In this document: in pieces, positions 1 to 8,982 of the stretch | Numbering within the stretch: the first letter of the stretch is position 1 | Layout of the letters: each line of letters opens with the position of its first letter | NCBI GenBank assembly: GCA_034520565.1 | Contig: JAXHNL010000002.1 | Location: 1,408,001-1,472,000, forward strand | From: Halodesulfurarchaeum sp. | GTDB lineage: Archaea; Halobacteriota; Halobacteria; Halobacteriales; Halobacteriaceae | DNA: 64,000 nt | Direction: 5' to 3' | Position numbers and translations under genes: made by a program | Notes under the pieces: model-generated | Database searches by the model: none | What the model was told of the DNA's origin: nothing | The model's input: only the letters and a program-made list of their open reading frames with translations

Positions 1-513
1 GACACCGACGATTGCCGAGTTGAGAACGAGAACGCGTTTTAGCCGTGAGATCGGGAGTCCAGTGCCGTTCAGGAAGTCAGAGGCATAGAGTACCCAGGAA
101 AGTCCGGGAACCAGCGTGATCGCCAGCGCGAGTGGCCCGCCAAAAACCGAGACCGTGATCGCGAGGCCATAGGCCCCCGCTGATGCGATCGAGAGGGGAG
201 TTTTGTAGCGATTCATGAACTGGCTTCTTGCCGAGGTCGCCTCGGGTTCACGCTTGGTGTCGCTGATTCGATCCCCGACGTACACGGCGAAGGTAACGAA
301 GGCAATGACCAGTGGGGCCGGTGAGGGCGGAAGCCCGAGCAGCAACATAACGGTTACGACCCCCGCGACGCCCATTGCGATAAGGTCGAGCTGTGTGTAG
401 TTCGCGACCTGTTTCAGTCGGTGCCCGTACCGCAATAACACGGCGAAGAACTCCCCGAGTTCCCCGCTGAGGAGCCCCGGTTCGATCGATTGGGTGGTTG
501 TTTTACTCGACAT
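1..513 (-). CDS. UbiA-family prenyltransferase-like membrane protein (5' part; runs off window start)
   Basis: Manual translation from ATG at 513: MSSKTTTQ...IAFVTFAVYVGDRISDTKRE...; open to position 1, multiple hydrophobic segments, YxxDRxxD motif. Confidence 0.65.
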   Translation of the reverse strand, partial: MSSKTTTQSIEPGLLSGELGEFFAVLLRYGHRLKQVANYTQLDLIAMGVAGVVTVMLLLGLPPSPAPLVIAFVTFAVYVGDRISDTKREPEATSARSQFMNRYKTPLSIASAGAYGLAITVSVFGGPLALAITLVPGLSWVLYASDFLNGTGLPISRLKRVLVLNSAIVGV

Positions 514-716
514 GGTTGAATCGGTACCGAACGGGCCAGGCCCGCAGTCGATACCTTGCTAATGGTATCCAGGGTTACCACATTAATCCTTGTAGATGGC
601 GAGTGGTCGGTGTCTTCCGCCCAGGGCGGTTCGTTTCTGACCGTGCGGACGCTTCGCGAACACCCGTTGAACGAAAGTCAGGCCTTTACCCGTCGGCCCG
701 CTCTCCCCGCATAGCA

Positions 717-1154
717 ATGACCCAGACTGCCCAGCGGTGGTGGGTTCGCCTCGCCGCCAGATGGCTCGCTCGCGTCGACGGCGTGAGCGGGATGATCCGC
801 CTCGCGATGCTCGGAATGACCGGCCTCTCGACGGCCACGCTCACGCTCAGACAGTACGGCCACGGCGAGTACGCCTGGCCGCTCATCGCCGTGGTCATGA
901 GTGGCACGCTCGTCTTCACCTACCTCTACACCGAGGGCGGGGTCTGGAACCAGATGTCCCGGGACCGCCAGGACCTCTCGAACAACTTCGCCGGCCCCTC
1001 GATGCGCATCAACGACGAACTCCTCGCCCGGGCGTTGCTCGCGGCCCAGGAGAAACGGGAACTCTCCGAGACCGAGCGGCAGGCGATCAAGACCGAACTC
1101 GACGACGCCTTCGACGAGTATCGGGACGGGCTGCCACTCGAAGACGCACCGTAG
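717..1154 (+). CDS. Hypothetical membrane protein (two TM segments, acidic C-terminal helix)
   Basis: ORF 498..1154; coding-like codon usage begins at ATG 717 (MTQTAQRWW...). Confidence 0.6.
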   Translation: MTQTAQRWWVRLAARWLARVDGVSGMIRLAMLGMTGLSTATLTLRQYGHGEYAWPLIAVVMSGTLVFTYLYTEGGVWNQMSRDRQDLSNNFAGPSMRINDELLARALLAAQEKRELSETERQAIKTELDDAFDEYRDGLPLEDAP

Positions 1155-1212
1155 ACCACAGCCCTGGCCAACGAACCCAGCCGAGGTCGAAACCGCAGCC
1201 AAAATCAGCCCG

Positions 1213-2130
1213 CTACCACTTCCAGGTGCCGTAGAGATACCCGCTCCCGACCATCGCGGTCAACAGGAACAGCATCACGAACTGCTTCAGCTTCGCGACC
1301 GACGGCCCACCGACCAGTGATCGTACCCGACCGGGCACGAACTCGGTCAGCAACTGCCCCAGGAACTCGCTCTCGGTCCCGCCGGATTCGGGCACCAGCG
1401 TCTCCATCGCTCGCTTCGAATACCCCTGCCAGAAGGCCCGATCGAGCAACCACCCGATTTCCGTCCGATAGGCAAACACCTTGTGGGCCACTTCCGCCTC
1501 GGGCTCGTACCACACCCCGTCGCCGTATTCGCTCGCCATCCGGGCCGCGAGTTCAGTCTCACCGCCCTGCAGGTTCGCATCGCCCTTGCGACCGCCGATC
1601 TCCGTGTCGAAGCCGCCCAGGTCCAGAAACACGTCCCGCTTGAACGAGATGTTCGACCCGAAGGTGTTCCGCACGTATCCCGGTCCGTCGGCGAACCCGC
1701 GATGGGTTACGCCAACCAACCAGTAGAATTCTTCAGGGAGAAACGCCGGCTTGCCAGCCACCCATGCAGGTGTCATTTTCCCACCCGCAGCCGGCGGGTC
1801 CTGCGCCTCGTAGGCCTCGACGAGCCGCCTCACCCAGTCCGGGTCGGCGATGGCGTCGTCGTCGATGAATGCCACGACATCGCCGCTCGCAATCTCGGCC
1901 CCGGTGTTCCGGCTCTCCAGCAATCCGACGTTCTCGTCGTTACAGTGAACGACCACCCTTTCCTTGCTCCCGTAGTCCTCCTGCACTCGCTCACAGACCG
2001 CACGATTCCCGTCGACGACGATCACGAGTTCCACGTCCGAATAGGACTGTGCCAACACGCTCTCCGCCGCCTCCGTGAAGTGCTCGTACGCGTCCATTGA
2101 GTAGGTGCAGAGGACGACGGAGACCTTCAT
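1213..2130 (-). CDS. aglG: GT2 glycosyltransferase, AglG-like
   Basis: MKVSVVLCTY start, VAFIDDDA (DxD), GGETEL, RAFWQGYSK motifs; glycosylation cluster context. Confidence 0.8.
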   Translation of the reverse strand: MKVSVVLCTYSMDAYEHFTEAAESVLAQSYSDVELVIVVDGNRAVCERVQEDYGSKERVVVHCNDENVGLLESRNTGAEIASGDVVAFIDDDAIADPDWVRRLVEAYEAQDPPAAGGKMTPAWVAGKPAFLPEEFYWLVGVTHRGFADGPGYVRNTFGSNISFKRDVFLDLGGFDTEIGGRKGDANLQGGETELAARMASEYGDGVWYEPEAEVAHKVFAYRTEIGWLLDRAFWQGYSKRAMETLVPESGGTESEFLGQLLTEFVPGRVRSLVGGPSVAKLKQFVMLFLLTAMVGSGYLYGTWKW

Positions 2131-2177
2131 TGCACCCTCGTAGGGGGGGTTTGCGAAAAGATGTTTCCTTCTCCGGG

Positions 2178-2492
2178 GTAGCCCGCAAACCGATTCGGGT
2201 GGGGCTACGAAAGGGTTCCCGCGAGGTCCGCAGGACCGAGGGGGAGCAAGCGAGAGCCGAAGGCTCTCGCCATGGCCGAGCGCTCGTGTTCGTCTCGCGG
2301 AGCCCTATCGCGACTGAGCGTAGCGATGGAAGCGATATCTCCGCGAGCGGGCAGCGAGACGACCGAAGGGAGTCTCGAAATAAACGAACGGCGAACGTGA
2401 GACGCGAGTGAAACGAGCGTCTCAGACTGGGCGAACGGCGATAGCCGTGAGCCGGAGTGAGCCGTGAGTTGCGAGCGGGAGGGGGCTTTCGA
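2178..2492 (+). repeat. Non-coding multi-hairpin element with GNA triloops and tandem GA mismatches
   Basis: Perfect hairpin gcgagagcc-GAA-ggctctcgc (2250-2270) plus five more nested stems; 23-mer at 2400-2422 recurs as reverse complement at 36703-36725. Confidence 0.75.
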
Positions 2493-2636
2493 GGGGATTG
2501 GGTTTGTGTCCCGCGTTTCCGATAAGCACGAGGGGCTTTCGGAGGTGATGAGAAGAAGTCTCGACACTTCGAACACCGAGAGACCTTCAAAAGACGTCCA
2601 CTCCCGAGTCCCCAGCTCTCACCAACCCCAACACCT

Positions 2637-2670
2637 ATTATGCATACAATCATATTATCACGTGCATAAT
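2637..2670. promoter_or_regulatory. Inverted repeat ATTATGCA-N18-TGCATAAT overlapping the ATPase start
   Basis: Perfect 8-bp IR in an AT-rich promoter, ending on the ATG at 2669. Confidence 0.5.
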
Positions 2671-4045
2671 GATCGACCGGGAACCGGAACTCGAGTGGCT
2701 CACCACCCACCTCCAAAACGAATCACGCCAACTCCTCGTCCTCTACGGCCGACGTCGCGTCGGGAAGACGACCCTCATCACCGAGGCCCTCGAAACGATG
2801 GCCATCCCATCGGTGTATTACCTCTGTGACGAACGCGGCCCGAAGTCGAATGCCCGGGCTTTTGCCGAGCAGTGTGCCACCACCTTTGACGACGTTCCTC
2901 CCGATGTCGACGGGTTTCCCGAAGCCTTTGCATACCTCAAACGTCGGGTCGATGGACCGTTCGTCGTCGCCCTCGACGAGTTCTCGTATCTCGTCGATTC
3001 CGACGAGACGATCCCCTCGGTCTTCCAGACGATACAGGATGCTGTCCTCGCCGAGACGAATATCTCGCTCGTTCTCGCGGGCTCTTCGATTTCGATGATG
3101 GAAGAGGGCGTCTTGAGCTACGAGAGTCCATTGTACGGCCGACGAACCGGCCAGTGGGAACTGGATCCGCTCGAATTTGCTGCCGCACGGGAGTTCTTCC
3201 CGGACACGAACATCGAGACCCAGATACAACTCTACAGTGTATTGGGGGGCGTTCCGGCGTACCTGGAACAGTTCGATCCGGAAACCCCACTGTTCGACAA
3301 CGTCGAGGGATCGATTCTCTCGAAAGGGGAATTCCTGTACGAGGAACCGGAATTCCTCCTGCGCCAGGAACTCCGGGAGCCCGCGACCTACATGGCCATT
3401 CTCGAGGCAATCGCGACAGGCGCCACGCGCGTGACCGAAATCGCGAACGAAATCGACAGGGACGCCAGTGCCCTCTCGCGCTATCTAAAGAACCTGACCC
3501 AACTGGCGATTCTGGAACGGGAAACGCCGGTAACTGATCCGGACGATCGAGGGCTGTATCGACTGACCGATGATTTCCTTCGGTTCTGGTTCCGCTACGT
3601 GGCCCCCAATCGCAGCGTGCTCGAACAGGGACGAACTGAACCAGTCCGAGCGGCCATCGAGGAGACACTGTCGACCCACACGAGTGATACCTTCGAACGC
3701 GTTTCACAGCAGGCAGTGGCGATTAGCGGATTTGGCGGCTCCTTCGCCCGGATCGGTCGCTGGTGGTATGGTGGGGAGGAAATCGACGTGGTGGGAGTGG
3801 ATCCGAAATCGGAAACGCTGCTACTCGGTGAATGCAAGTGGACTGAATCGCCGGTGGGCACGAGACTTTTCGACGAGCTCCGGGACCTCGAAACGAATGT
3901 ACGGTGGCATGGAGACGAGCGAACTGTCGAGTATGCCCTGTTCTCACGCTCGGGGTTCACAGAGGATTTGCGCGCTCTCGCTCGTGAACGGGTGGACCTT
4001 CGGCTTCTCGGACTCCAGGATTTGGACGAACTATTTGGCGTCTAG
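2669..4045 (+). CDS. Archaeal AAA ATPase with wHTH and C-terminal DUF234/PD-(D/E)xK-like domain
   Basis: Walker A YGRRRVGKT, Walker B ALDEF, SPLYGRRT, C-terminal EEIDVV...GECKW. Confidence 0.9.
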   Translation: MIDREPELEWLTTHLQNESRQLLVLYGRRRVGKTTLITEALETMAIPSVYYLCDERGPKSNARAFAEQCATTFDDVPPDVDGFPEAFAYLKRRVDGPFVVALDEFSYLVDSDETIPSVFQTIQDAVLAETNISLVLAGSSISMMEEGVLSYESPLYGRRTGQWELDPLEFAAAREFFPDTNIETQIQLYSVLGGVPAYLEQFDPETPLFDNVEGSILSKGEFLYEEPEFLLRQELREPATYMAILEAIATGATRVTEIANEIDRDASALSRYLKNLTQLAILERETPVTDPDDRGLYRLTDDFLRFWFRYVAPNRSVLEQGRTEPVRAAIEETLSTHTSDTFERVSQQAVAISGFGGSFARIGRWWYGGEEIDVVGVDPKSETLLLGECKWTESPVGTRLFDELRDLETNVRWHGDERTVEYALFSRSGFTEDLRALARERVDLRLLGLQDLDELFGV

Positions 4046-4065
4046 TGTGACTGCGGTACGTGCGT

Positions 4066-4746
4066 TCACCCCTCGACCGTCGGCGTCAACGACTTCAACG
4101 AAAAATCCGATTTCGAACAGTACCGCTGGGATAACCGTCCCAACTCCAGCGTCCGAGACACGTCGGCGACGTTGTGCAACACCAACTCCAGGTAGTCACC
4201 CGTCTCGAACGCAGCTACGGCCTCCTCACTGTCCACGAACGGATCGATCGAAGAAGCGTCCCCACTGACCAGCGTCTCGTACACCCCGACCAGATCCGAC
4301 ACCGACTCCCCGTCCACGACGGCCGTGTTGAACCGTCGATTCAGCACCGGCATGAGATCGGCGTAGGGAACATTGCCGAACGGCCAGTCAACGTCGTGGC
4401 TCGCCAGCCGCGTTCGCAGGAACGGCAGATCGAATCCCGACTGCCATCGCTCGCCGTTGTACGCCACCAGCAACAAGTCCCCGTCCGCCAGCCGGGAGCC
4501 ACCGAACGACCCGACCGCCTCCAGCAGATCCCGCTCCGTGTCGTGGACCGACAGTTGCACGGGCGTTCCACTCGCTTCGCGAACCCGTGTCTCCAACTCG
4601 TCCTCGGCAATCGACTGATCCCCGCCGACCTGCAGGAATACCCGCGTCCCCATCTCGAATTCAAATCCGACGACCGTCACCTTGTCCTCGACGGCAAAGC
4701 CAGTGGTCTCGATGTCGAAGGCCACGAGTTCGAGGACGTCACTCAT
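4066..4746 (-). CDS. RNase H-like / DnaQ-type (DEDDh) 3'-5' exonuclease domain protein
   Basis: ExoI AFDIETTG, ExoII YNG...FDLPFL, ExoIII HNVADV. Confidence 0.75.
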   Translation of the reverse strand: MSDVLELVAFDIETTGFAVEDKVTVVGFEFEMGTRVFLQVGGDQSIAEDELETRVREASGTPVQLSVHDTERDLLEAVGSFGGSRLADGDLLLVAYNGERWQSGFDLPFLRTRLASHDVDWPFGNVPYADLMPVLNRRFNTAVVDGESVSDLVGVYETLVSGDASSIDPFVDSEEAVAAFETGDYLELVLHNVADVSRTLELGRLSQRYCSKSDFSLKSLTPTVEG

Positions 4747-4859
4747 TTTCCACCCCGCGGACCGGCTCCCAACGTGCGTGTTCGTCCATGGACCACTCAC
4801 TTCGCGGCGCTCCGAAATGAGTGTCCGCCAGGCGGGGTGAAAGTGAAATCCTTGTTGTC

Positions 4860-6347
<1,488 letters not shown>

Positions 6348-6434
6348 ATAAACCCGATTCTGGAACCGGCTCCCGCTTACCCTCAAGTGAGATTGGACGG
6401 CGAAATATGCTGTGGGAAACGTGCTAGTCAACCC

Positions 6435-6815
6435 TCACTCGGTTTGTTTGGACTCGATCGGGATCCGTTCGGCAGTCACCCGGTCGATTCGCTTGTCCGA
6501 TGAAATGATCGGGTCGTCTGTTGCGTAGGCGACGTGATACGCGTCGAATGCAGTCAATCCGTGTCGATCCATGTAATCTGCAGCCCGGAACAGCACGGAT
6601 TCGTCTTCTGCTACCTGCGCGATTTCGAGTGCGTAACTGAGTGCCTCGATCCGGTCGAAGTCAAACCGATCCGAAATGACGAGCAATTCCAGCAACGTCG
6701 CCCGCGAGGTGTATATTTCGTTCTCGTGTTTTCGTGCGAGATCCGTTGCTTGTCCTTGGAGCCAGTCGTCGTCCTTCACGAGTGCGATGAAAAAATCAGT
6801 ATCGGCATAGATCAT
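6435..6815 (-). CDS. vapC: VapC-like PIN domain toxin
   Basis: MIYADTDFFIAL, E in TLLELL, TAFDAYHVA, SSD. Confidence 0.85.
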   Translation of the reverse strand: MIYADTDFFIALVKDDDWLQGQATDLARKHENEIYTSRATLLELLVISDRFDFDRIEALSYALEIAQVAEDESVLFRAADYMDRHGLTAFDAYHVAYATDDPIISSDKRIDRVTAERIPIESKQTE

Positions 6816-7069
6816 GCCGATTCGTCAGTCTCGTGGAGCGCGTGCTTCTGTGCCGCAGAGCGGGCCTCGGCCTTGATTTCCGCGATCGACTTGCCCGCAA
6901 ACGCGTCCCCGACGGCCTCACGGAGGCCCTCGATCGGATCGGAACGAAGCGGAATGAGTTCGACCCGATCCGCGAGTTCGACGATCCGATAGTGCTCGCC
7001 ATGCTTCTCGCGGATCTCGCGGGGGAGAACGATCCGCCCACGGTCGTCCGTCGTCGTGGTTCCACTCAT
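6812..7069 (-). CDS. vapB: AbrB/MazE-type antitoxin
   Basis: DDRGRIVLPREIR motif; 4-bp overlap with PIN gene. Confidence 0.85.
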   Translation of the reverse strand: MSGTTTTDDRGRIVLPREIREKHGEHYRIVELADRVELIPLRSDPIEGLREAVGDAFAGKSIAEIKAEARSAAQKHALHETDESA

Positions 7070-7182
7070 TACGTCGAGTATTGGGTGGGAAGAACTATTA
7101 AAATTTCCCCTATTTATTGGCCAATTCCCACAAACAATGAATTGCTGGGAATACCATAAAATAAGCCCATACAGCTAACTCG

Positions 7183-8982
7183 TTACTGCACCGTCACGCT
7201 CTTGGCCAGATTCCGCGGCTTGTCGATCGCCCGGTCCTTCAACCGCGCGACGTGATACGCGAACAGCTGCATGTAGACGTTCGCCACGACCGGCTCCAAC
7301 AGCCCCGCTTCGGGTACCGAGAACGAATAGTCCAGCACGCCTCCGTCACCCGCAGTTTCGCCGAACCCAACTGTCGCCGCGCCCCGGGTATCCACCTCTG
7401 CGACGTTGTGCAACGTCGCGTCCGGCCGTGAGCCCTCGGTCAACACCGACAACACCAGCACGTCGTCGGTCACCAGCGCCAGCGGGCCGTGTTTCAACTC
7501 CCCGGCGGCAAACCCCTCGGCGTGATCATACGAGATCTCCTTCAGCTTCAGCGCCCCCTCCAGCGCGACCGGATACCCGAACCGCCGCCCGAGGAAGAAA
7601 AACGCCTCCCGATCCGCGTACTCCGCCGCAATCGCCTCGATCTCGTCCTCGCGATCGAGCACCTGCTGGATCGCCCCGGGTAAACTCCGGAGTGATTCGA
7701 GCACGTCACTCGCCCGCTCGCGACTCAACACGCCTCGCAGCCGGCCCAGTGCGACCGCGAGCATCGTCACGGTCGCCACCTGCGAGACGAAGGTCTTGGT
7801 CGCGGCCACGCCGATCTCCGGGCCGGCGTGGATGTAGACGCTCTCATCGGCCTCGCGGGTCACGGTGCTCCCGACCGTGTTCGTCACGGCCATCGTTCGC
7901 GCTCCTGCCGCCTTGGCCTTCCGCAGCGCCTCCAGCGTGTCCGCGGTCTCGCCGCTCTGGGTGATCGCCACGACCAGGGTTTGCCACGGATCTCGACCCC
8001 CACCGACGTCGTACTCGCTTGCGACGTGGGTGGTCACCCGGACGTCCGCCAGGTCCTCGAAGAGCCGTTCGGCGTACAGTCCGGCGTGATACGAGGTCCC
8101 CGCCGCGACGATCTGGATCTCGTCGAGTGACTGGAGGTACTCCCGCGGGAGGTCGACGTCCAGATCGACGTCCCCCGAGAGCGCGTCGACGCGCCCGGTC
8201 AGGGCCTGTCGCAACGCCCGGGGCTGTTCGTGGATCTCCTTGAGCATGAAGTGCTCGTAGCCGCCCTTTTCGGCGGCTTCGGCCTCCCACTCGATGTGGA
8301 TCCGCTCGCGCTCGACCAGCTCCTCGCCGCGGTAAATCTCGACGCCCTCCGGCGTGATCCGGGCGACGTCCCCGTCCTCGAGGAAGGTCACGTCCCGGGA
8401 GTGCTCGACGAACGCCGGGACGTCGCTTGCCAGGAACTGCTCGCCGTCGCCGTGACCGATCACGAGCGGACTGTCCTGTCTGGCCGCGACGATCTCGGCC
8501 CGATCTTTCACCATGACTGCGATGGCATAACTCCCTTCGAGTCGATCGACAACCCTGCTCACTGCCGTGCGGAGATCGCCTCCCTCCCATTCCTCTTCGA
8601 TCAAGTGGGGAACGACCTCCGTGTCCGTCTCGCTCGTGAACGTGTGCTCCTCGGCCAGTTCTGCCTTTAGAGCGGCGTGGTTTTCGATGATCCCGTTGTG
8701 AACGACCGCGATCTCACCCGTACAGTCGGTGTGGGGGTGGGCGTTTTCGTCCGTCGGCGGGCCGTGGGTCGACCAGCGCGTGTGCCCGATGCCGGTTTTC
8801 GCCGTCGAACTGTCCGGGAGGGTCAACTCGCCGATCTTCCCTTCGGCCTTGTAGACGTCGAGGGCGGAATTCCCCAGGGCCACCCCTGCAGAATCGTAGC
8901 CCCGGTACTCGAGGTTCGCAAGCGTCGAGGCCACGATCGGCAATGCGTCTCGATCGCCCACGTAGCCGGTGATCCCACACAT
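7183..8982 (-). CDS. glmS: Glutamine--fructose-6-phosphate aminotransferase
   Basis: MCGI N-terminus, EYRGYDSAG, GHTRWSTHG, PRNLAKSVTV. Confidence 0.97.
   Translation of the reverse strand: MCGITGYVGDRDALPIVASTLANLEYRGYDSAGVALGNSALDVYKAEGKIGELTLPDSSTAKTGIGHTRWSTHGPPTDENAHPHTDCTGEIAVVHNGIIENHAALKAELAEEHTFTSETDTEVVPHLIEEEWEGGDLRTAVSRVVDRLEGSYAIAVMVKDRAEIVAARQDSPLVIGHGDGEQFLASDVPAFVEHSRDVTFLEDGDVARITPEGVEIYRGEELVERERIHIEWEAEAAEKGGYEHFMLKEIHEQPRALRQALTGRVDALSGDVDLDVDLPREYLQSLDEIQIVAAGTSYHAGLYAERLFEDLADVRVTTHVASEYDVGGGRDPWQTLVVAITQSGETADTLEALRKAKAAGARTMAVTNTVGSTVTREADESVYIHAGPEIGVAATKTFVSQVATVTMLAVALGRLRGVLSRERASDVLESLRSLPGAIQQVLDREDEIEAIAAEYADREAFFFLGRRFGYPVALEGALKLKEISYDHAEGFAAGELKHGPLALVTDDVLVLSVLTEGSRPDATLHNVAEVDTRGAATVGFGETAGDGGVLDYSFSVPEAGLLEPVVANVYMQLFAYHVARLKDRAIDKPRNLAKSVTVQ

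Follow-up and report, generated by a model that had tools for sequence, protein, structure and literature searches.

A probable expanded copy of a transposase-less palindromic repeat family of Halobacteria in the genome of a Halodesulfurarchaeum species

In the genome of Halodesulfurarchaeum sp., some 300 bp of DNA between a glycosyltransferase gene and an ATPase gene read as a set of branched hairpins, which raises the question of whether this is a structure unique to one locus, a structured RNA, a DNA site maintained by its host or a member of a mobile repeat family. In the window (i.e., the whole 64,000-nucleotide stretch of contig JAXHNL010000002.1 that was analysed), positions 2197-2491 on the + strand are, on balance, probably an expanded copy of a transposase-less, non-coding, palindromic repeat family found across Halobacteria. 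By analogy, the family itself would, with slightly better than even confidence, be the archaeal counterpart, in behaviour, of the bacterial REP/BIME sequences and of what Haloquadratum carries as "small mobile repeats".

Architecture of the copy in the window

A reading of window positions 1500-3300 recovered, in place, every hairpin that the initial annotation had listed (Table 1). The branched element of ~300 bp that it described is real, and its boundaries are corrected from 2178-2492 to 2197-2491. The repeated unit begins at 2197 (GGGTGGGG), and its closing stem ends at 2491 (CTTTCG); metagenome contigs matching from 2195 or 2197 carry unrelated sequence upstream. The leader at 2178-2196 pairs with 2197-2208 in the window copy only. 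Pairing of the leader with the GGGTGGG motif (P0) found no support across the family, the mean longest helix being 6.38 in 64 copies versus 6.31 in permuted flanks. The element had also been placed at the left edge of an accessory block, which is not borne out, as it sits within a surface-glycan island.

Table 1. Features of the element and its neighbourhood, in window coordinates
Feature	Position	Strand	Details
Family 2 glycosyltransferase gene	1213-2130	-	Transcribed away from the element 5′ end; Pfam Glycos_transf_2, E 4.8e-21
Local leader hairpin	2178-2208	+	GTAGCCCGC..GGGTGGGGCTAC; upstream 19 nt with conserved 5′ motif; minimum-energy folds
Conserved 5′ terminus	2197-2215	+	GGGTGGGGCTACGAAAGGG; all own-genome copies, 42- and 110-copy alignments
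P1 outer stem, 5′ strand	2209-2213	+	GAAAG
Accessory module 1, three-way unit	2216-2275	+	Stem TTCCC/GGGGA; C-GA..GA-G tandem sheared pairs; two hairpins
Module 1 hairpin	2226-2236	+	GTCC-GCA-GGAC, within CGAG-gtcc-GCA-ggac-CGAG (2222-2240)
Module 1 hairpin	2250-2270	+	GCGAGAGCC-GAA-GGCTCTCGC (gcgagagcc-GAA-ggctctcgc)
P2 closing stem, 5′ strand	2276-2288	+	GCCGAGCGCTCG; CGCTCG 2281-2286 pairs with 2472-2477 in folds
"Type I" core interior	2294-2347	+	Stem CTCGCGGAG/CTCCGCGAG (ctcgcggag...ctccgcgag), then CCCTATCGCGA..AGCGATAT stem
Apical mini-hairpin of type I core	2316-2326	+	GA-GC-GTA-GC-GA
Accessory hairpins 2-4	2354-2471	+	All of stem-GA-xx-GNA-xx-GA-stem type
Accessory hairpin	2355-2377	+	cgagac-GA-cc-GAA-gg-GA-gtctcg
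Enclosing domain	2384-2470	+	aacGAacggcGAac / gtGAgccgtGAgtt; surrounds the 2398-2424 and 2430-2453 hairpins
Hairpin	2398-2424	+	tgagacgc-GA-gt-GAA-ac-GA-gcgtctca
Hairpin	2430-2453	+	ggc-GA-acggc-GATA-gccgt-GA-gcc
Conserved 3′ terminus	2472-2496	+	CGAGCGGGAGGGGGCTTTCGAGGGG; P2 3′ strand 2472-2477, G-run, P1 3′ strand CTTTC 2486-2490
Second, minimal 3′-end copy	2518-2551	+	CCGATAAG..GAGGGGCTTTCGGAGGTGATG; ~50 nt downstream of first 3′ end
G-poor tail	2552-2668	+	Reaches promoter and ATG of ATPase gene
Archaeal ATPase_2/DUF234 protein gene	2669-4045	+	Co-oriented with element; Pfam ATPase_2, E 6.3e-24; DUF234, E 1.1e-22

At 295 nt, versus ~105-128 nt in typical copies, the window copy is the largest seen in this analysis. 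The region of accessory hairpins 2-4 is 85% identical to another copy of the same genome (C2:1365944-1366096), and a compensatory change from T-A to C-G separates the two (GA-GT-GAA-AC-GA to GA-GC-AAA-GC-GA). The same hairpins are exactly missing from metagenome copies, with joints at 2394>2459, 2353>2472 and 2349>2471. The doubled 3′ end recurs in two other copies of the genome (C2:1367790-1368014 and 1365893-1366347) and at loci L040, L037, L024 and L032, and comparisons of other copies with their empty sites indicate that the 40-105 nt following CTTTCG are part of the insertion.

Folding and covariation across the family

Copies of the family share conserved ends, GGGTGGG..CGAAAGGGGCC (GGGTGGG-N-GAAAGGGGCC) on the 5′ side and CGAGCGGGAGGGGGCTTTCG on the 3′ side. 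The inner parts of these ends pair as P1 (GAAAG/CUUUC) and P2 (~10 bp, with arms of 8-12 bp across copies), giving one long imperfect hairpin of the G-rich strand. The interior is modular, as hairpins of the type stem-GA-xx-GNA-xx-GA-stem are gained, lost, swapped and occasionally inverted, and copy length ranges from ~105 to 300 nt with a median of 119 nt (113 copies).

The initial annotation had proposed a structure specific to one strand, built from GNA triloops and tandem G.A pairs; at the level of the family, the fold is asymmetric between strands, GNA triloops predominate and the tandem G.A pairs are conserved. Window positions 2178-2492 were folded on both strands with DNA and RNA parameters, using 100 dinucleotide shuffles per run, and no shuffle matched the native fold in any of the four runs. 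With DNA parameters, the + strand reached -82.1 kcal/mol (z -4.9) and the - strand -74.1 kcal/mol (z -4.5), while RNA parameters gave -164.8 kcal/mol (z -6.9, the most extreme of the four) and -134.6 kcal/mol (z -4.3), respectively, the + (G-rich) strand being better under both parameter sets. That the - strand also lies far from random is expected of palindromic DNA. Across the family, RNA parameters make the G-rich strand the more stable one in 104 of 113 copies, and DNA parameters do so in 101 of 113.

The closing stems are maintained by covariation. Over 110 copies, 96.4% of the P1 and P2 cells are paired versus 81.1% in shuffles, both sides have changed in 12 of the 14 pairs, and the covariation score is 0.360 versus 0.098 in shuffles (0/500 reach it) and at most 0.051 with the partners slid; the copies are related, so that counts across them overstate independence, and alignment A3 was fitted to the covariance model's structure. 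A separate RNAalifold run on P1 and P2 in 42 copies gave 10 of the 14 pairs. The type I core architecture is common to 12 type I copies, in which RNAalifold finds covariation of the three pairs beside UAUC/GAUA (UUC/GAA, CCU/AGG, CCC/GGG, CGG/CCG and CUGC/GCAG). In module 1, examined as nine homologous modules from five genomes, 96.5% of cells are paired and 5 of the 20 pairs show compensatory change; the tandem G.A pairs (G11 A12 / G26 A27) are invariant and the flanking pair switches between CG and UA. The G.U wobble U4.G34 is kept in all nine module 1 copies, and the covariation includes G.U intermediates. At the base of P2, the tandem GA is swapped for Watson-Crick pairs in other copies.

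Among 187 predicted loops from 86 copies, GNA accounts for 72 of the 99 triloops, and the 37 tetraloops include nine GNRA and no UNCG. The G-rich top strand contains 67 GA-xx-GNA-xx-GA units, the bottom strand one. At one locus (L031), the interior is inverted between the P2 arms and the covariance model matches both strands.

Distribution, placement and mobility

The suspicion that the element belongs to a multi-copy repeat of REP, MITE or SMR (small mobile repeat) type, rather than being a unique structure, proved justified. The genome holds nine loci, seven of them within a 46-kb surface-glycan/archaellum region (C2:1,364,553-1,410,495), and a genome of another genus (G090) gives 108 covariance-model matches. 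The model matches 66 of 101 related genomes and 28 of 45 genera, per-genome counts being lower bounds, capped at 38 scored candidates; in addition, model R1 fails to recover the 295-nt window copy with a cutoff of E <= 0.001, so that large variants escape the copy counts. Within the genus, the element is patchy (7 of 11 genomes). The exact 19-mer of the 3′ terminus was found at 32 haloarchaeal loci in the genome contig collection. Carriers of the family known by name include Salinarchaeum laminariae R26, Halomarina halobia and Halobaculum spp.

A typical copy of 118 nt matches 10 haloarchaeal plasmid records from eight genera, and the window copy itself gave no BLAST match to plasmids. At the match, seven of the records have no annotation and one has a "hypothetical protein", one record is unannotated altogether, and none marks a repeat or an RNA. 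The phage collection gave no match to the family, and none of the five exact 17-mer matches in viral contigs was confirmed by the covariance model. Logan metagenome contigs break at the element. An Rfam 15 cmscan of window positions 1-8000 at E <= 1 returned nothing at 2178-2551, and full-text literature searches found no published name for the family. Well studied as haloarchaeal genomes are, the repeat goes unmarked in these plasmid records, matches nothing in Rfam and has no published name that could be found. A name would make for better annotation and account for breaks in assemblies. Elsewhere in the scanned 8000 nt, the cmscan listed only sot0042 and a sub-threshold HgcC match at 4864-5050.

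The copies examined are flanked by unique intergenic DNA beside housekeeping genes, and no promoter-like motif is common to the upstream flanks. Divergent genes often have a head-to-head pair of copies between them, which lies upstream of the BRE/TATA of these genes and therefore outside the mRNAs. In G090, copies count as adjacent when they are less than 700 nt apart, and 23 of 23 such cases are head-to-head; pairs separated by 25-48 nt also occur in HArc-gm2 loci, the two arms of a pair having different interiors. Genes were called by a crude procedure (ORF plus GC3 filter). On these calls, 75 of 86 canonical copies fall outside ORFs; of the 67 copies whose 3′ neighbour could be called, 37 share the orientation of that downstream gene, and 21 of these 37 genes start 85-111 nt after CTTTCG. 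Among 30 convergent genes, 10 have their stop 47-63 nt after CTTTCG. The start spacing implies that the ~50-nt tail stops a few bases short of BRE/TATA. Distances to the gene on the 5′ side are broad, the tight spacing being confined to the 3′ side.

In an array at C2:1364553-1368014, four co-oriented copies alternate with small genes. A 5′-UTR or riboswitch was rejected for these copies, three of the four facing gene 3′ ends, and for the many copies upstream of promoters. Integron R″/R′ core sites have the consensus GTTRRRY; the ends of the element have no core site and the 54 ORFs around arrays no integrase domain, and an attC/cassette array was likewise rejected. A resemblance to origin recognition boxes was also dismissed, since those beside orc1 of the same genome (GTTCCAGTTGAAAC-AAAGGGG-TGGGGGG, C2 ~564.9-565.6 kb) have only AAAGGGG and a G-run in common with the element, and the order of the two differs.

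Two loci of the genome have empty counterparts in the same genus. The copy at C2:792721-792900 is absent from G001 and G010, and G007 has a copy with a different interior; the one at C2:71564-71684 is absent from the same two genomes, and G007 is without the core. Neither of these two loci shows a target duplication, terminal inverted repeats of known insertion sequences or a conserved flanking tetranucleotide, and the insertion boundaries are fuzzy. No 5′-flanking oligonucleotide is conserved across copies, and CTAG was rejected as a target site, as it ends the tail in 11 of 111 copies (40-49 nt bin) and lies on the 5′ side in one of 111. The patchy presence in the genus and the empty orthologous sites imply that individual copies are dispensable. 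Whole-hairpin insertions and deletions separate orthologous copies and are also seen in metagenome copies.

Between G090 and G056, two of four loci were informative for orthology, the other two (L117 and L112) having broken synteny or extra intervening DNA. At the two orthologous sites, the termini are 95-100% identical, the flanking coding sequences 78-85% and the spacers 33-53%. The termini are thus better conserved than their flanks. Simple selfish DNA would be expected to show less constraint, and the pattern fits either a host function or concerted evolution.

The family needs neither Y1 nor IS6 transposases, the two families screened against element presence (Y1 as PF01797, and IS6 DDE as PF13610). 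The co-occurrence with HUH enzymes (TnpA/RAYT) envisaged at the outset did not materialise: Y1_Tnp is present in 25 of the 66 genomes with the element versus 15 of the 35 without it, and PF01797 is absent from G000, G090, G056 and G088. IS6 DDE occurs in 33 of 66 genomes with the element versus 11 of 35 without, and in none of the 11 genomes of the genus, though seven carry the element. Both enzymes are missing from the high-copy genomes G090, G056 and G088. No recombinase gene lies beside any copy examined. Similarly, an autonomous element between copies in (+...-) arrangement was rejected, as the two enclosed regions carry tRNA-binding, PAC2 and aRF1 genes and no transposase, and an IS26-like 18-nt leader upstream of two adjacent copies of the genome has no inverted partner there. 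How transposase-free small haloarchaeal repeats move was reportedly left open by Pfeiffer and colleagues in 2011. Since the family is dense in complete genomes devoid of HUH and IS6 enzymes, a comparative search for the enzyme is feasible.

Competing readings and relatives of the family

As a mobile repeat, the element would work and spread at the DNA level. In its folded form, the G-rich strand may be single-stranded DNA or part of a cruciform, arising, for instance, on the template of the lagging strand or where the DNA upstream of promoters is negatively supercoiled. A putative enzyme would recognise this form, and gene conversion between copies could homogenise the ends while interiors are exchanged.

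A structured non-coding RNA family, or a cis-acting UTR RNA, in which the transcribed G-rich strand would be a protein-binding scaffold with tandem G.A pairs, is unlikely. The strongest z-score (-6.9) does come from the + strand with RNA parameters, and G.U intermediates in the covariation, termini that exceed neighbouring genes in conservation at two orthologous sites and the co-orientation of 37 of 67 copies with the downstream gene would all suit an RNA. However, no Rfam family matches at E <= 1, the upstream flanks have no common promoter-like motif, many copies form head-to-head pairs between divergent genes and outside mRNAs, the loops are mainly GNA triloops with no UNCG, and one copy (L031) has an inverted interior. 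In a rather improbable reading, the family would be a cis-acting DNA structure that the host maintains, and no selfish DNA, such as a supercoil sink or cruciform, a site where a DNA-binding protein loads, or an insulator set immediately before core promoters and after stop codons. The spacing, which is tight on the 3′ side alone (21/37 at 85-111 nt and 10/30 at 47-63 nt), termini 95-100% conserved across species at two orthologous sites and the lack of transposase association are consistent with it, but single copies are dispensable, judging from their patchy presence in the genus and the empty sites, and the spacing, which rests on crude gene calls, may reflect very short intergenic regions where only flush insertions survive. 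Highly improbable is that the copies are cargo or remnants of IS200/IS605-type PATEs, or of ordinary MITEs that a DDE (IS6-type) transposase mobilises in trans. The somewhat higher frequency of IS6 in genomes with the element (33/66 versus 11/35) favours this origin and is set against genomes without IS6, namely all 11 of the genus (seven with the element), and G090 (108 copies), G056 and G088, which are devoid of Y1 as well; two empty sites show no target duplication, and the 18-nt leader of two adjacent copies is without an inverted partner.

The flush placement upstream of core promoters, together with ends conserved beyond the flanking genes, suggests a functional role. A distinctly doubtful extension of this idea is a Halobacteria-wide, host-maintained single-stranded or cruciform DNA element, in which arrays of mini-hairpins held in a conserved clamp would be the platform for a putative structure-specific enzyme. 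If so, the clamp would be set flush against core promoters and stop codons, with ends more constant than the neighbouring genes, and the enzyme would be neither HUH nor a known DDE transposase, candidates being a primase, a helicase, a nuclease or orphan Orc/Cdc6-type proteins. Such an enzyme might have a new way of copying the element, or might use it in organising supercoiling, the restart of replication or the boundaries of transcription.

Returning to the mobile repeat, its closest bacterial analogues are the REP/BIME sequences and REPIN doublets, which, according to the available text of PMC3116915 and PMC3733652, are likewise high-copy, extragenic, imperfect palindromes in mosaic with other short repeats. 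Like REP doublets, the family forms inverted pairs (23/23 head-to-head in G090), and, like REP/BIME, it persists at orthologous sites across species and keeps its fold by compensatory change. Unlike REP sequences (20-40 nt), the copies are three to ten times longer (~110-300 nt), with a branched modular interior, and are associated neither with a RAYT/Y1 gene nor with a general GTAG or CGTC tag. REP sequences lie mainly at gene 3′ ends, whereas the family is archaeal and often found upstream of promoters and between divergent genes.

Among archaeal repeats, SMR-A of Haloquadratum walsbyi (HqIRS42/43/55) is described, in the available part of PMC3119063, as ~110 bp long with inverted repeats, transposase-free, present in dozens of copies and making no target duplication, its mobilisation being called enigmatic. 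The family resembles it by description (median of 119 nt, P2 arms of 8-12 bp, no transposase, no duplication at two sites), which is the level at which the two were compared. In the same account, SMR-A elements insert in near-terminal palindromes of PATEs or IS605-type elements and are >95% identical within one species, whereas copies of the family sit in unique intergenic DNA, span many genera and have variable interiors. Like PATEs, other IS200/IS605 derivatives and MITEs, the family is short, non-coding, structured and polymorphic for presence, and breaks short-read assemblies. It differs from PATEs (two subterminal palindromes) in having one long closing hairpin, no fixed flanking motif and no dependence on Y1, and from MITEs in lacking dependence on IS6 and, at the two empty sites, target duplication.

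At a smaller scale, the building block is identical to known DNA mini-hairpins. According to the available text of PMC13037366 and PMC3201870, GCGNAGC and CCGAAGG owe an extraordinary stability to DNA and are much less stable as RNA, and the first of these sources places such hairpins at the single-strand initiation sites of phage G4 and of plasmid RSF1010. The strand-specific combination of sheared G.A pairs with a GNA triloop is common to the family and to these hairpins (PMC13037366, as far as its available text goes), which are single, functional and located in origins of small replicons, whereas those of the family are arrayed in a dispersed chromosomal repeat. In the family, nature offers hundreds of covarying hairpins that use this motif as their unit, and the window copy contains GCGTAGC at 2318-2324 and CCGAAGG at 2255-2261 and 2363-2369.

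Fold of the element and its conservation

All the hairpins listed in the initial annotation, which had proposed a branched element folding as single-stranded DNA on one strand, are present at their given coordinates in the sequence of window 1500-3300. For positions 2178-2492, the predicted energies are -82.1 kcal/mol (z -4.9) on the + strand and -74.1 kcal/mol (z -4.5) on the - strand with DNA parameters, and -164.8 kcal/mol (z -6.9) and -134.6 kcal/mol (z -4.3), respectively, with RNA parameters. None of 100 shuffles reached the native energy in any of the four runs, hence the fold is far above chance. As anticipated, the G-rich (+) strand is the more stable under each parameter set. A permissive Rfam scan (E <= 1) of window 1-8000 gave no match at the element, its only matches being the sot0042 RNA, presumably of the omega-RNA class, and a weak HgcC at 4864-5050, adjoining the TnpB gene. 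Public metagenome contigs align from 2195/2197 on, the DNA before that point being unrelated, and fragment into short pieces within the element; their variants omit exactly the accessory hairpins (joints 2394>2459, 2353>2472 and 2349>2471).

Coordinates of the element, its neighbours, the family loci on the contig carrying the window (C2) and other features
Feature	Coordinates	Strand	Remark
Element proper	window 2197-2491	+	
Optional 60-nt module	window 2216-2275		first two hairpins of the initial annotation
GCGTAGC	window 2318-2324		mini-hairpin motif
CCGAAGG	window 2255-2261, 2363-2369		mini-hairpin motif
Family-2 glycosyltransferase gene	window 1213-2130	-	left neighbour of element region
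ATPase_2/DUF234 gene	window 2669-4045	+	right neighbour of element region
RNase_H_2-like ORF	window 4066-4800	-	
sot0042 RNA	window 4886-5050	-	overlaps TnpB 3' end; Rfam 96.5 bits, E 1.2e-24
TnpB gene, IS1341-type	window 4926-6275	-	OrfB_IS605 and Cas12f1-like TNB domains
Family locus	C2:71564-71684	+	motif scan
Family locus	C2:792721-792900	-	motif scan
Family locus	C2:1364553-1364674	-	motif scan
Family locus	C2:~1365140-1365259	-	motif scan
Family locus	C2:1365893-1366347	-	motif scan
Family locus	C2:1367790-1368014	-	motif scan
Family locus	C2:1392430-1392542	+	motif scan
Family locus, 5' part only	C2:1397788	+	motif scan
Family locus, window copy	C2:1410197-1410495		motif scan
Four-copy array	C2:1364553-1368014		L011 4553-8014
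Low-GC island	C2:1372000-1402000		down to 40% GC
tRNA-Cys with partial duplicate	C2:793040-793205		L012 ~4040-4205; intact gene at L012 4127-4203
AT-rich stretch	C2:564650-565600		probable replication origin

Blast of the element region against its own 1.86-Mb assembly recovered partial copies with a common 5' end, GGGTGGG(4-7 nt)AAAGGGGCCGACCGGTCG, a common 3' end, CGAGCGGGAGGGGGCTTTCGGAGG, and an interior ranging from nearly nil to ~400 nt. The RNAalifold consensus of 42 copies has two stems, the outer P1 (GAAAG/CUUUC) and the closing P2, with double changes in 10 of 14 pairs. When 110 copies were aligned to the covariance model, a fit that favours the structure, 96.4% of the P1 and P2 cells pair vs 81.1% in shuffles, two-sided changes occur in 12 of 14 pairs, and the covariation score is 0.360 vs 0.098 in shuffles (0/500 reach 0.360) and at most 0.051 with slid partners. 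Both the slid control and the independent 42-copy prediction speak for a genuine signal. P1 exists in two versions, GAAAG/CUUUC in 69 copies and GGAAG/CUUCC in 33. P2 most commonly starts with a 5'-GA/3'-AG tandem; the same two columns are Watson-Crick pairs in other copies (e.g., GGGCGCTCGA/TCGAGCGCCC), therefore the G.A pairs lie within a continuous helix.

Among the interiors, two types are seen repeatedly. Type I, to which the window copy belongs, reads CCCUAUC-NNN-GAGCGNAGCGA-NNN-GAUAUG, and its three variable pairs covary (UUC/GAA, CCU/AGG, CCC/GGG, CGG/CCG, CUGC/GCAG), while type II is organised around GACGCAAGCAC...GCGCAGCGAG. The optional module has nine homologues in five genomes, in which 96.5% of cells pair, 5 of 20 pairs show double changes and the covariation score is 0.292 vs 0.148 in shuffles (0/500 reach 0.292), the count of covarying pairs alone being equalled by 93/500 shuffles. 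Its G-A/G-A positions are invariant and the adjoining pair switches between C-G and U-A. Both the covariation within a multi-copy family and the conservation of the G.A mismatches (nine 60-nt modules) are in line with the structure initially proposed.

Of 113 distinct copies, 104 fold more stably on the G-rich strand when RNA parameters are used, and 101 when DNA parameters are, the copies being related and hence not independent trials. The predicted folds of 86 canonical copies contain 187 hairpin loops, including 99 triloops, 72 of them GNA (GAA 37, GGA 22, GTA 8, GCA 5), and 37 tetraloops, with nine GNRA and no UNCG. The strand asymmetry extends to the unit GA-xx-GNA-xx'-GA (complementary xx), found 67 times on the G-rich strand vs once on the opposite strand. 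According to a 2026 review on mini-hairpin DNA (PMC13037366), GCGNAGC and CCGAAGG fold into DNA hairpins of extraordinary stability that contain a sheared G.A pair, whereas the RNA counterparts are considerably less stable; phage G4 and plasmid RSF1010 carry such hairpins at their single-strand initiation sites. PMC3201870 likewise describes d(GNA) loops as extraordinarily stable in DNA and less so in RNA. This loop grammar is the main, indirect reason for favouring folding as DNA.

Distribution and arrangement of copies

A 126-nt copy matches 21 of 61 genomes, including its own, by blastn, often at contig ends in fragmented assemblies. An exact 19-mer of the 3' end occurs at 44 loci in a species-representative genome collection; 32 are Halobacteria by record title (Haloferacaceae and Halobacteriales MAGs, Salinarchaeum laminariae, Halomarina halobia, Halobacterium spp. 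and HArc-gm2), and the other 12, from bacteria or a methanogen, are expected by chance because the 19-mer is GC-rich. The covariance model R1, built on 42 short copies (alignment A2), matches 66 of 101 genomes (44/57 of high quality, 28/45 genera, 7/11 own-genus genomes), copy counts being at least those found among the best 38 candidates per genome. With 108 matches at E <= 0.01 in the complete genome G090, of another genus, these searches bear out the suspected multi-copy status across Halobacteria. R1 gives no match on the window's own expanded copy, therefore expanded copies are undercounted. A typical copy matches ten haloarchaeal plasmid records (from Halobaculum, DL31, Halobacterium DL1, Haladaptatus, Haloarcula, Natrarchaeobaculum, Natrinema and Natrononativus), annotated at the match as nothing in seven and as 'hypothetical protein' in one, with one record wholly without annotation. 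No phage record matched, and none of five viral contigs with a 17-mer was confirmed by R1.

Seven of the nine own-genome loci cluster inside 46 kb encoding AglB, two archaellins, many glycosyltransferases, a sulfatase and an S-layer-type protein, with a low-GC core (down to 40% GC vs 62.6% for the contig). Dense in genes for glycosyltransferases, a sulfatase, a phosphodiesterase and an epimerase, this island probably serves variable glycosylation of the cell surface. Between the two archaellin genes and AglB, four co-oriented copies alternate with small opposite-strand genes (DUF7387, HTH_20, MarR-like); the layout is cassette-like, yet no integrase domain turned up in the 54 ORFs scanned near the arrays, and an integron-like array was rejected.

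All 23 copy pairs lying within 700 nt in G090 are head-to-head, with abutting leaders and arms that are different family members. Spacers of ~120 nt between such pairs are conserved (L105, L108, L111, L118, L123, L127), with motifs such as GGTGGATCGTCC and GAGCTACGCTCC, while spacers of another class contain CCTCCCCAACC. Together with other short repeats, the elements thus make up BIME-like mosaics.

According to crude gene calls (ORF plus GC3 filter), the gene on the 3' side is co-oriented with the copy in 37 of 75 intergenic canonical copies, with the start codon 85-111 nt after CTTTCG in 21 of the 37; in these flanks, the ~50-nt tail, G-poor DNA after CTTTCG, ends a few bases before a BRE/TATA-like motif, as judged by eye. 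Another 30 copies face a convergent gene, whose stop codon is 47-63 nt away in ten. On the 5' side, the spacing to genes varies widely (36-1763 nt). The tight 3' distances thus place the element and tail flush with the next functional feature, reflecting either targeting of such positions or the survival of only flush insertions in compact genomes. In a subset, CTAG, a rare tetranucleotide in haloarchaea, ends a ~47-nt tail directly before the BRE/TATA of the next gene (11/111 copies in the 40-49 nt bin, e.g., L104, L107, L108, L117 and L077, from G090 and others).

Insertion, persistence and mobilisation

Empty-site alleles, sought following the initial annotation, were found for two own-genome loci in the same-genus genomes G001 and G010. 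At C2:792721-792900, the copy is bordered by a gene start and by the tRNA-Cys promoter, with flanks 489 nt apart vs 89 nt in both empty sites; G007 carries a copy with a type II interior there. The copy at C2:71564-71684, flanked by the promoters of tRNA-Arg and of a divergently transcribed protein gene, is absent from G001 and G010, and G007 is without the core. Both insertions exceed the core, since the tail (40-105 nt past CTTTCG) is inserted too, and neither locus shows an evident target duplication against G001 and G010. Near the first, the initial 42 nt of tRNA-Cys are repeated ~140 nt upstream of the intact gene, probably a remnant of an integrative element with its attachment site in the tRNA.

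Of four loci compared between G090 and G056, two carry the element in orthologous position and two were uninformative.

Identity between orthologous copies of G090 and G056
Segment	L107	L124
5' terminus	97%	100%
3' terminus	95%	100%
20-37-nt leader motif	86%	92%
Flanking coding sequence	82-83%	78-85%
Spacer after stop	53%	42%
Tail (L107 whole; L124 first 18 nt / remainder)	44%	78 / 33%
Interior	35%	58%

Whole hairpins were gained or lost in these copies, and paired arms were swapped for unrelated yet complementary sequence, suggesting that copies exchange sequence by gene conversion, that the ends are under selection, or both. At locus L031, the interior is inverted between the P2 arms and R1 matches both strands.

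The proposed co-occurrence with an HUH transposase was not borne out: Y1 (PF01797) is present in 40 of 101 genomes, 25/66 with the element and 15/35 without. The IS6-type DDE transposase (PF13610) occurs in 44 (33/66 and 11/35, respectively), in none of 11 own-genus genomes. Neither domain is found in the high-copy genomes G090, G056 and G088, assembled in one to three contigs (completeness 93% for G090, 99% for the others); a link to IS6 thus did not prove necessary. In G090, the two regions examined between outward-facing copies carry no transposase and hold housekeeping genes (tRNA-binding, PAC2, aRF1).

Nature of the family

The family is real, abundant and without a name, and belongs to the transposase-free structured intergenic repeats; the initial reading is supported in part, by copy number, covariation and strand asymmetry but not by the HUH co-occurrence test. 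On balance, the slightly favoured reading is a transposase-less DNA hairpin repeat that would adopt a single-stranded or cruciform form. An RNA family would account for the excellent RNA fold, the retained G.U pairs and the constrained ends, but it is unlikely given that no common upstream promoter motif was seen, that numerous copies precede promoters or separate divergent genes, and that the loops are DNA-like. A cis-acting DNA structure maintained by the host is slightly less probable still, and ordinary MITE or PATE cargo is improbable.

As a DNA hairpin repeat, the family behaves like bacterial REP/BIME/REPIN sequences; however, these are defined by a RAYT association that fails here, and the haloarchaeal copies are much larger. 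By description, a further similarity is to SMR-A, the 'small mobile repeats' of Haloquadratum, portrayed in PMC3119063 as ~110 bp with inverted repeats, no target duplication and 'enigmatic' mobilisation, but the preference for PATE palindromes as target given there was not seen for the present family. Full-text searches of the main body of non-subscription articles yielded no description of it. Its unusual features are the DNA mini-hairpin grammar, a clamp kept better than the genes beside it, pairing that is strictly head-to-head, a position flush with promoters and stop codons, and no identifiable mobilising enzyme.

Elsewhere on the contig, the AT-rich stretch listed as a probable replication origin lies between inverted boxes GTTCCAGTTGAAAC-AAAGGGG-TGGGGGG and adjoins the sole clear orc1/cdc6 gene.
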